15,964 bases of DNA from an uncultured Clostridia bacterium (GTDB lineage Bacteria > Bacillota > Clostridia > TANB77 > CAG-508). Shown piece by piece: positions 12,128 through 12,233 of this stretch (position 1 is its first letter; every line of letters starts with the position of its first letter). The stretch lies in NCBI GenBank assembly GCA_944388715.1, contig CALXJV010000036.1, positions 1-15,964 of the forward strand, in the 5' to 3' direction. The notes beneath the pieces are model-generated. The model did not search any database and was not told the DNA's origin. It saw nothing but the letters and a program-made list of their open reading frames with translations. The translations under genes were made by a program, and so were the position numbers.

Positions 12128-12233
12128 CAATCGGGGACGTTTTTGTCCAATTGGGGACGTTTCTACTTTGGACATTTTTTAAAAAATGTCCAAAGTAGAA
12201 ACGTCCCCAATTGGACAAAAACGTCCCCGATTG
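12128..12233. repeat. Perfect 106-bp palindrome (53-bp arms, no spacer) carrying four GGGGACG motifs
   Basis: The left arm, 12128-12180, is CAATCGGGGACGTTTTTGTCCAATTGGGGACGTTTCTACTTTGGACATTTTTT. It is the exact reverse complement of 12181-12233. The centre is TTTTTT|AAAAAA. The palindrome lies between the convergent dnaI-like gene and gyrA. Confidence 0.95.

Follow-up and report, generated by a model that had tools for sequence, protein, structure and literature searches.

Why does a perfect palindrome of 106 bp stand between a DnaC/DnaI-like helicase-loader gene and gyrA in an uncultured bacterium of the Clostridia? The question arises from a stretch of 15,964 nt (assembly GCA_944388715.1, contig CALXJV010000036.1), here called the window, in which the palindrome occupies positions 12128-12233. 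A first-pass annotation of this DNA read the perfect conservation as a sign of selection or very recent origin and considered several roles, from a replication or partition signal to the remains of a mobile element. We consider it likely that the palindrome is a head-to-head dimer of a dispersed extragenic unit, similar to the hairpin-forming doublets of repetitive extragenic palindromes (REPs) that are known as REPINs, and that the units make up the cognate repeat family of an HUH Y1 transposase of the RAYT (REP-associated tyrosine transposase) or TIRYT type. Two observations carry this reading. The arms in the window belong to a dispersed family, and this family is intergenic, obligately head-to-head in close pairs, and physically tied to a RAYT-like gene in five lineages. 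Loci in other sequences are referred to below by L-numbers.

Structure of the palindrome

A direct reverse-complement check of the assembled sequence gave two arms of exactly 53 nt, 12128-12180 and 12181-12233, with a spacer of 0 and a center at which TTTTTT meets AAAAAA. The first mismatch falls at position 54 counted from the center, and an imperfect extension reaches 12111-12250, with 70-nt arms that are 89% complementary. The motif GGGGACG lies on the + strand at 12133 and 12153 and as CGTCCCC at 12202 and 12222, thus two copies per arm, 20 nt apart, and it has no other occurrence in the window. A 15-nt degenerate pattern around this motif, ATYGGGGAYGTTTYT, gave four matches in the window against 0.00 expected (200 shuffles). 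Shorter inverted pieces are found in the same region, namely TGTCCAA at 12144 and 12187, TTGGACA at 12168, 12211, and 12231, and the self-complementary CCAATTGG at 12147 and 12207. As RNA, either strand folds into a 53-bp hairpin of about -99 kcal/mol (z = -18 for the + strand and -14 for the - strand), in a window with a G+C content of 25%.

The first-pass annotation had described the spacer-less symmetry and its center, the four motifs spaced 20 nt apart within each arm, and the internal sub-palindromes, all of which were located as described. It was also accurate in naming the flanking dnaI-like gene and gyrA, which Pfam matches confirm, and in stating that no U-tract adjoins the hairpin and that the nearest T-run lies behind a weak 4-bp stem (AGAG/CTCT, 12255-12272).

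A family profile, built for nhmmer from 105 units of other genomes, resolves the palindrome into its parts. A complete unit of ~37 nt, TGTCCAATTGGGGACGTTTCTnnTTTGGACATTTT, is contained in each arm. The left one, TGTCCAATTGGGGACGTTTCTACTTTGGACATTTTTT, lies on the + strand at 12144-12180 (E = 1.7e-8, profile positions 2-36), and the right one, an exact inverted copy of the left, on the - strand at 12181-12217 (E = 1.7e-8). Each of these inner units can form a 7-bp stem with a 17-nt loop, followed by U6. Truncated units lie outside them. The left outer unit (TGTCACTT + CAATCGGGGACGTTTT, + strand, 12120-12143) has a disrupted TGTCC start and breaks off after GTTTT (nhmmer match at 12128-12144, E = 0.015, profile positions 6-22), and the right outer unit (TGTCCAATCGGGGACGTTTT, - strand, 12218-12237) has its TGTCC start intact (nhmmer match at 12216-12237, E = 2.9e-4, profile positions 2-23). 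From the matches to inner and outer units it follows that each arm consists of one full unit and one truncated outer unit of 16-20 nt, and that the element at 12128-12233, to which no strand applies, is a head-to-head dimer of units.

A dispersed family of intergenic units

The pattern CAATYGGGGAYGTTTYT was scanned against one genome per species (596 Gb), with ~500 chance matches expected, and gave at least 118 stretches. Among the matches listed, 68 loci from 32 low-GC assemblies, labeled uncultured Clostridia, Clostridium sp., Eubacteriales, or Bacillota, share the extended consensus (A/T)TGTCCAATTGGGGACGTTTCT(G/T)TTTGG(G)ACATTTT, which gives a unit of ~35-37 nt; one subfamily extends this consensus by TATGTAAAG. 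In the 518 kb of sequence around these copies, the profile found 116 units at 84 sites, or ~1 additional site per 32 kb, and a single metagenome-assembled genome (MAG) holds at least 15 units. Nearly all units (96 of 105) lie outside open reading frames (ORFs) of at least 90 aa, and ~52 of the 84 sites are occupied by a solo unit. Counting copies, which the first-pass annotation had proposed as a check, thus places the arms in a dispersed intergenic family and not at a unique site.

Single CAATYGGGGAYGTTTYT matches in GC-rich, unrelated phyla had random flanks. The same was true for all 33 matches of the viral-contig motif scan, which are therefore due to chance, and the family is not phage-borne. 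When applied to the window and to L002-L005, the family profile found no unit beyond the palindrome's own. Rfam identified one T-box and nothing else on 18 family loci, and a full-text literature search for the motif returned no description of the unit sequence.

These matches bear directly on the simplest reading of the locus, which is a locally evolved, unique, and unusually long bidirectional intrinsic terminator. The DnaC/DnaI-like gene and gyrA are convergent, so that their 3' ends enclose the palindrome, and relatives carry at this point a terminator hairpin, bidirectional in most of them; the hairpin of the palindrome is also very stable. A unique terminator should not, however, have arms that match a profile from other genomes with E = 1.7e-8, nor does the base of this hairpin carry a U-tract on either strand, and the family also occurs in non-terminator positions. 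On sequence grounds this reading is refuted as an account of origin, and altogether we give it almost no credence.

The genes next to the units, including pflB, ruvA, recG, obg, and radA, speak to another reading, in which the palindrome would bind a replication or partition protein or act as a hairpin origin or in telomere resolution, in connection with the DnaD- and DnaC-like genes or with a 568-aa tyrosine recombinase. A perfect spacer-less palindrome adjoining DnaD- and DnaC-like genes, in a window that also encodes a large tyrosine recombinase, invites such an interpretation. Yet relatives with the same DnaD/DnaC-gyrA synteny do without the palindrome, units are dispersed beside the unrelated genes just named, and the recombinase belongs to a separate island by a tRNA cluster with GGGGACT arrays of its own. 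The reading is extremely unlikely, and the replication-initiator/DnaD, partition, hairpin-origin, and resolution-site roles suggested in the first-pass annotation find no support, given that units adjoin unrelated housekeeping genes genome-wide.

Arrangement of the units

Close pairs of units are head-to-head ("+ then -") in 32 of 32 cases, with TGTCC ends outward and T-runs inward, and none is tail-to-tail. The interiors of these pairs range from 0 to ~380 bp. Arms of 33-76 nt were measured in 29 of 30 family pairs and of 31 nt in one, and two pairs were not extendable; the arms differ by 0-3 mismatches, with 0-1 in 27 of 29 pairs. Near-complete palindromes occur elsewhere in the family (83 bp in L010, 79 bp in L092, and 85 bp in L107). 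Near-perfect symmetry is the norm in family pairs and thus not special to the DnaC-like/gyrA locus, which weakens the earlier argument from perfect conservation to selection or recent origin; the exact symmetry would not in itself be evidence for selection on a unique signal.

Units have a close relationship to gene ends. Short doublets fill convergent spacers in L008, L010, L034, and L075, as in the window. In 43 of the 52 cases in which the TGTCC end faces a gene 3' end, it lies at most 12 nt from the stop codon, and in 16 cases the unit starts exactly 0 nt after it, with TAA, TGA, or TAG running directly into TGTCC (e.g., L008 2712, L021 3785, L043 3388 and 4894, L109 3083). Otherwise the TGTCC end shortly precedes a ribosome-binding site. 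The opposite end of the unit (GGACAT) overlaps the ATG of radA in L167 and L170. The abutment on stop codons could reflect a target preference or selection for compaction.

Some pairs have more complex contents. At L009 5743-6243, a native promoter and a T-box leader (Rfam RF00230, 97 bits, 5884-6113) lie between two inverted units, and the pair begins immediately behind the stop codon upstream and ends shortly ahead of the ribosome-binding site downstream. Some pairs therefore enclose host regulatory DNA and not the interior of a miniature inverted-repeat transposable element (MITE). In one subfamily, a second conserved module, GGGATTTTGGGGACGGACTCATTTTTCCCTTTTT, comes after the unit in L020, L028, L062, L098, and L104 (e.g., L028 3250-3290) and brings a second GGGGAC box ~36 nt inward. 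Interiors of ~280-360 bp with a long central hairpin are shared by several loci and genomes (L021/L071/L085/L118 and L028/L098), and these have no Rfam match.

Outer ends are often partially duplicated in tandem, for instance as TCCAATTGGG + TGTCCAATTGGGG (L049 3455-3470, L077, L116, L106, and L038 2755-2770). The truncated outer units of the window (12120-12143 and 12218-12237), with their 20-nt period, are of the same kind. Such duplications could be footprints of a cleavage and rejoining reaction, or they could result from slippage. Orthologous intergenic sites are occupied by pairs in different species (L071 119-409 and L072 596-767; L008 and L118), and the interiors and even the unit subfamily differ between them. 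This suggests long retention with turnover, or insertion hot spots.

A RAYT-type transposase gene flanked by units

In L050, a 970-bp head-to-head pair with units at 705-750 (+) and 1683-1722 (-) encloses an ORF of 264 aa (775-1569). This gene surfaced on inspection of the pair, whereas clustering of the ORFs of at least 100 aa near copies had shown no recurrent transposase. The protein matches Pfam Y1_Tnp (PF01797) with 5e-17, and against NCBIfam REP_Tyr_transpos it scores 73.9 bits, just below the cut-off of 80. Its homologues number 1,890, many of them on contigs of ~1 kb. Those at 84, 63, 59, and 56% identity sit in the same slot, which consists of an mtaB-like radical-SAM gene, one or two small ORFs, the RAYT, and radA. 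The RAYT-like gene is flanked by units, + upstream and - downstream, in five lineages (L050, L163-166, L167-169, L170-172, and L173; 56-100% protein identity), and the sequence of the flanking units drifts with the RAYT lineage.

Two motifs, the HUH motif (H60xH62) and the YxHxNP tyrosine motif (Y119xH121xN123P124), are invariant in 19-25 homologues. An AlphaFold (AF2) model of the L050 protein had a pLDDT of 85.5, and its top Foldseek match in the PDB was 4ER8, the E. coli TnpA-REP bound to a REP hairpin (E = 3e-7, TM 0.71), followed by the TnpA proteins of IS608, ISDra2, and IS200. A profile search against the PDB reached 4ER8 weakly (E = 0.04), and a single-sequence phmmer search of the PDB gave no match.

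The unit variants at the RAYT flanks agree with those of dispersed copies in the same assembly. The GGGAC...TGGACA type is found in both settings in CALXLP (L050, L093), and the composite GCTCCTTTTGGAGC is common to the RAYT flank (L173) and a dispersed copy (L032) of ERZ12290372. Judging by the conserved slot in all five lineages, the RAYT gene appears to be single-copy and vertically inherited. Among the alternatives in the first-pass annotation, two abutting terminal inverted repeats (TIRs) of a miniature mobile element came close, and in essence this is supported by dispersed paired repeats that flank a RAYT-type gene.

The nature of the flanked gene is also relevant to whether the units are instead the TIRs of a cut-and-paste insertion sequence with a DDE-type transposase, the palindrome being a minimal MITE of two TIRs. 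Such an element would account for pairs that are always head-to-head with interiors of 0-380 bp, for interior types that recur across loci and genomes (L021, L071, and L085; L028 and L098), and for ends that read 5'-TG...CA-3'. It would not account for the solo units at ~52 of 84 sites, and no target-site duplication was seen by eye at ~30 pairs. Moreover, no recurrent DDE transposase ORF turned up in the 518 kb around the copies, in which the largest ORF cluster (10 members, family unchecked) is very varied in length and has no consistent position relative to the units. The sole transposase flanked by units is of the HUH-Y1 type, and a DDE-type MITE is quite improbable.

The same site in relatives

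The spacer between the stop codons of the DnaC-like gene and gyrA is not conserved across relatives. L128/129 (83% identity in the DnaC-like protein) have a spacer of 34 nt with a simple hairpin, and L002/4/5 (82%) and L125-127 (84%) have a classic bidirectional terminator, AAAAAATCCTTTTAAG...CTTAAAAGGATTTTTT. An ordinary terminator hairpin is thus present at the site in the 82-84% relatives, bidirectional in most and one-directional in one lineage. L124 (87%) has other hairpins and apparent degenerate remnants, and L001 (93%) has an imperfect doublet with three motif copies and a 5-nt loop. The differences between the arms of L001 and those of the window are symmetric (CTGTTTGG/CCAAACAG vs CTACTTTGG/CCAAAGTAG, and CCATTGG/CCAATGG vs CCAATTGG). 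From the comparison of the site and these symmetric differences it follows that the palindrome is lineage-specific and young, and it evidently occupies the place of a former terminator.

A second locus shows the same replacement. In the pflB-pflA spacer of L046 and L109, a unit stands at the exact position of an ordinary hairpin in L021, so that units take the place of an ordinary terminator hairpin at two loci (DnaC-like/gyrA and pflB-pflA). In the window, the sole canonical terminator-like feature for the + strand gene is the weak stem AGAG-ACGC-CTCT with its T-run (12255-12272, + strand), which is kept in reduced form in L001. The earlier suggestion of a transcription barrier in front of gyrA is plausible by position, as the relatives have a terminator hairpin there, but the palindrome lies behind gyrA, at its 3' end.

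Since L001, the nearest relative, has a 5-nt loop and three motif copies, one may ask whether the true sequence of the window has a spacer or imperfect arms that the assembler collapsed. Such an artefact is very unlikely. Both flanks are unique and syntenic with relatives, independent assemblies hold near-complete family palindromes of 79-85 bp, and an asymmetric spacer would be carried in k-mers and not lost. The related imperfect doublet at the same site in the independent assembly L001 and the near-complete palindromes in L010, L092, and L107 support the reality of the palindrome.

Replacement of terminators is also what might be expected if the unit were a host punctuation element, i.e., a host-factor binding site, factor-dependent terminator, or insulator kept by selection, with an incidental or secondary RAYT association. 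In line with this, the unit is conserved across species with unalignable flanks, different species have units at orthologous sites (L071/L072 and L008/L118), the outer end lies exactly 0 nt from the stop codon in 16 cases, and units stand in for ordinary terminator hairpins at two loci. GGAC/GTCC half-sites also repeat within the unit, the outermost of them flipping orientation in one subfamily. On the other hand, no candidate factor was identified, units occur in both orientations relative to genes and within operon spacers, and even at 56% identity the RAYT gene is still flanked by units, with matching variants, an arrangement that defines REP/RAYT systems. We therefore regard a pure host element as unlikely and favor a RAYT-dependent repeat.

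Comparison with known systems

REPINs have been defined previously (PMC3337134), and so has the arrangement of REPs or REPINs with RAYT genes (PMC3116915, PMC3337134). The REPIN-RAYT systems of Pseudomonas and Enterobacteria (Bertels & Rainey 2011; Nunvar 2010; Ton-Hoang 2012) resemble the family described here in having a syntenic transposase gene, apparently single-copy here too, flanked by its own repeats, dispersed extragenic units that lie after genes and between convergent genes, and characteristic inverted doublets able to fold into a long hairpin, and the best structural match here is TnpA-REP (4ER8). The differences are the absence of a GTAG/GT[AG]G tag, a single unit that forms a hairpin only weakly, a copy number estimated at ~50-80 sites per genome as opposed to hundreds, and a host that is a Gram-positive anaerobe. 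Related species thus display many extragenic copies, inverted doublets, a flanked RAYT gene, a Y1 HUH protein, and synteny, as REP/REPIN-RAYT systems do. The classical REP mark of a GTAG tag with a strong unit hairpin is lacking, and TIRYT-type is therefore the better label.

TIRYT genes are RAYT-like and are flanked by long TIRs and not by GTAG-tagged hairpins; some TIRs share the sequence GGGGWSAS, and families of TIRs, which reach moderate abundance, include singles, dimers, and clusters (Di Nocera et al. 2013, PMC3733652). The TIRtron/TIRYT arrangement of a Y1 gene with long inverted flanking repeats and an intergenic family of singles, dimers, and clusters is found here as well, as is a protein of about 257 aa with a helical C-terminal extension. 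A secondary box of the family, GGGGACAC, fits GGGGWSAS at 8 of 8 positions and the main box, GGGGACGT, at 6 of 8. The secondary box occurs in L009, L032, L068, L091, and L173, with GGGACAC in L167. The hosts differ, being uncultured low-GC Clostridia here.

Most TIRYTs fall into TnpA-Y1 subclass 2.1, which has a C-terminal helix-turn-helix (HTH)-like extension and for which no repeat families were reported (Quentin et al. 2018, PMC6006769). In contrast to that study, a repeat association is clear here, for a protein that is putatively of subclass 2.1. In Clostridia, only Group 1 RAYTs with few associated 16-mers have been found (Bertels et al. 2017, PMC5581495).

Bidirectional Rho-independent terminators share with the palindrome the position between convergent genes and a very stable hairpin, but here the arms are 53 bp long, no U-tract is present at the stem base, and the sequence is that of a dispersed family. 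The bacterial MITEs ERIC, Correia/NEMIS, RUP, and bcr1, which form long RNA hairpins, and terminator-like repeats such as pneumococcal SPRITE are small non-coding intergenic inverted repeats that are co-transcribed with neighboring genes and can act as RNA hairpins or terminators. They show target-site duplications, and their partners are of the DDE type or not known. The Clostridial units are likewise small, non-coding, intergenic inverted repeats, but no target-site duplication was seen and the partner is an HUH-Y1 enzyme.

Other resemblances were considered and rejected. A Tn3-type inverted repeat (GGGG...TAAG) does not apply because the conserved sequence reaches outside GGGG and there is no 5-bp target-site duplication. 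A likeness to Xer/dif half-sites (TTATGTAAAG) is limited to one subfamily and absent from the window, Spo0A, CtsR, parS, and uptake-sequence analogies do not fit in sequence, and an inverton is excluded as the doublet in the window has no interior to invert.

Evidence against the favored interpretation

A number of observations weigh against a RAYT-dependent repeat. The 16-kb window contains no RAYT gene and no second repeat site, and a metagenome scan with the window-specific variant GGGGACGTTTCTACTTTGGACA returned two GC-rich chance matches only. For the organism of the window, the link to a RAYT therefore depends on homology to related species. As the five RAYT loci are orthologs, they do not represent independent insertions.

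At the level of the unit, a single copy folds weakly (z -1.1 to -2.3), and the GGGAC subfamily is without the unit stem. Compensatory unit variants exist (TGTGC/CACA, GGGGC/GTCCC, and GGAGCAATT/AATTGCTCC); covariation of the TGTCC/GGACA stem had the same distribution as a permutation control. A conserved GTAG (GT[AG]G) tag is absent from the family, and the GTAG of the window variant is not conserved. With respect to function, no T-run or U-tract adjoins the hairpin base on either strand, and solo units occur between co-directional genes at distances that could not accommodate a promoter (L012, before ruvA, as well as L056, L067, and L106), from which it follows that the unit is not an efficient terminator as a rule. 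Pairs around host regulatory DNA, as in L009, are also awkward for the simple picture of a MITE with an interior.

Proposed mechanism

The palindrome is most likely a non-autonomous, RAYT-dependent element at the site of a former bidirectional terminator. By analogy with related enzymes, a RAYT acting in trans would recognize the units and cut and join them as single-stranded DNA, and this activity would create and spread both single units and inverted doublets. IS200/IS605 (IS608) TnpA and E. coli TnpA-REP cleave and rejoin single-stranded DNA hairpins exposed on the lagging-strand template. The exact symmetry of the arms may have arisen through recent dimer formation off one template or through hairpin-templated quasipalindrome correction between the arms, as quasipalindrome template-switch correction can act between inverted arms. 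Both the symmetry and the symmetric differences in L001 fit concerted evolution of the two arms.

At its present site, the palindrome is predicted probably to serve as an RNA or single-stranded DNA hairpin. The doublet would be transcribed from both convergent genes and fold into the 53-bp RNA hairpin, and each incoming transcript would first meet a unit in the same sense, with its 7-bp stem, 17-nt loop, and U6, before completing the longer structure. The doublet hairpin may in this way take over from the bidirectional terminator of its ancestors and form a barrier or stabilizer at the 3' ends, and on the + strand the stem at 12255-12272 could be a weak back-up terminator. A terminator or 3'-end stabilizer role of the palindrome is thus a plausible prediction.

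A bolder proposal, which we put forward as speculative and rather unlikely, is that the repeat has become a domesticated gene-boundary module. RAYT would insert it, precise to the nucleotide, at stop codons and immediately before ribosome-binding sites, where it would stand in for conventional terminators, and hairpin-templated correction would keep its palindromes perfect. If true, Gram-positive anaerobes would have a REPIN/RAYT system whose function for the host can be demonstrated.

Neighboring genes and other features of the window

The DnaC/DnaI-like gene (11092-12114, + strand; Pfam IstB_IS21 3e-15 and Bac_DnaA 2.5e-9) has its stop codon 13 nt before the palindrome, and gyrA (12277-14733, - strand; Pfam DNA_topoisoIV 1e-167 and six DNA_gyraseA_C matches) has its stop codon 43 nt beyond it. 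The order of a type IV coupling protein (T4CP)-like gene, small ORFs, DnaD-like gene, DnaC-like gene, and convergent gyrA is kept in metagenomic relatives, and the synteny of the DnaC/DnaI-like gene is retained in L002-L005 and L124-L129. The block in question (6191-12114 and 12277-15220) comprises type IV secretion system (T4SS) coupling-protein-like, pilin-like, two unknown, DnaD-like, and DnaC-like genes and is syntenic beside gyrA in all relatives seen. Upstream of gyrA are a DUF6809 ORF and an HTH gene, and no gyrB. The T4SS-like/DnaD/DnaC block may derive from a conjugative element of which a remnant became fixed, or it may be a core locus of unusual makeup.

Positions 1-5060 of the window form an integrase-bearing island that encodes a 568-aa protein with a Phage_integrase domain (3042-4748) together with HTH and sigma-70 region-4 proteins. 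The island adjoins a tRNA Thr/Glu/Lys cluster (5064-5352, - strand), and L002 has the same tRNA cluster with other genes on the island side; it resembles an element integrated at tRNA-Thr. Two TGGGGACT arrays, at 4786-4817 and 4917-4959, come after the stop codon of the tyrosine recombinase (4748) and before tRNA-Thr; they have three and four copies with an exact period of 11 bp, all on the + strand. In L179, a viral contig, four GGGGACT copies with the same 11-bp period come after a distant homologue of the integrase. No such arrays were found in the Clostridial repeat loci. Probably the arrays serve the integrated element as binding sites of the arm or iteron type. The window contains 11 copies of GGGGAC where 0.64 are expected, seven in the arrays and four in the palindrome, and the core that they have in common may be a coincidence.

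Searches of the entire window added little to this picture. Rfam 15 identified three tRNAs and nothing else, and megablast against plasmids and phages gave tRNA matches at most.

Biological significance

The origin of the palindrome appears to be explained by these sequence comparisons, as a dimer of a newly recognized Clostridial RAYT/TIRYT repeat family. What is new is the unit sequence and the host clade, the REPIN/RAYT-TIRYT type of miniature mobile DNA being already known. REPIN/RAYT systems have been studied almost only in Proteobacteria, and little or no association with repeats has been reported for the RAYT classes of Clostridia (PMC5581495, PMC6006769). There is now a clear pairing of repeat and transposase in abundant, uncultured gut Clostridia, which offers a recognizable unit of 35 nt that pairs strictly head-to-head, a syntenic and apparently single-copy transposase gene, and two loci of terminator replacement.

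Repeats of this kind will break short-read assemblies, and many RAYT contigs are ~1 kb; they can also pass wrongly for unique regulatory signals. The family may be used as a model for how Y1 transposases make long perfect palindromes and for whether such repeats gain roles in their hosts.

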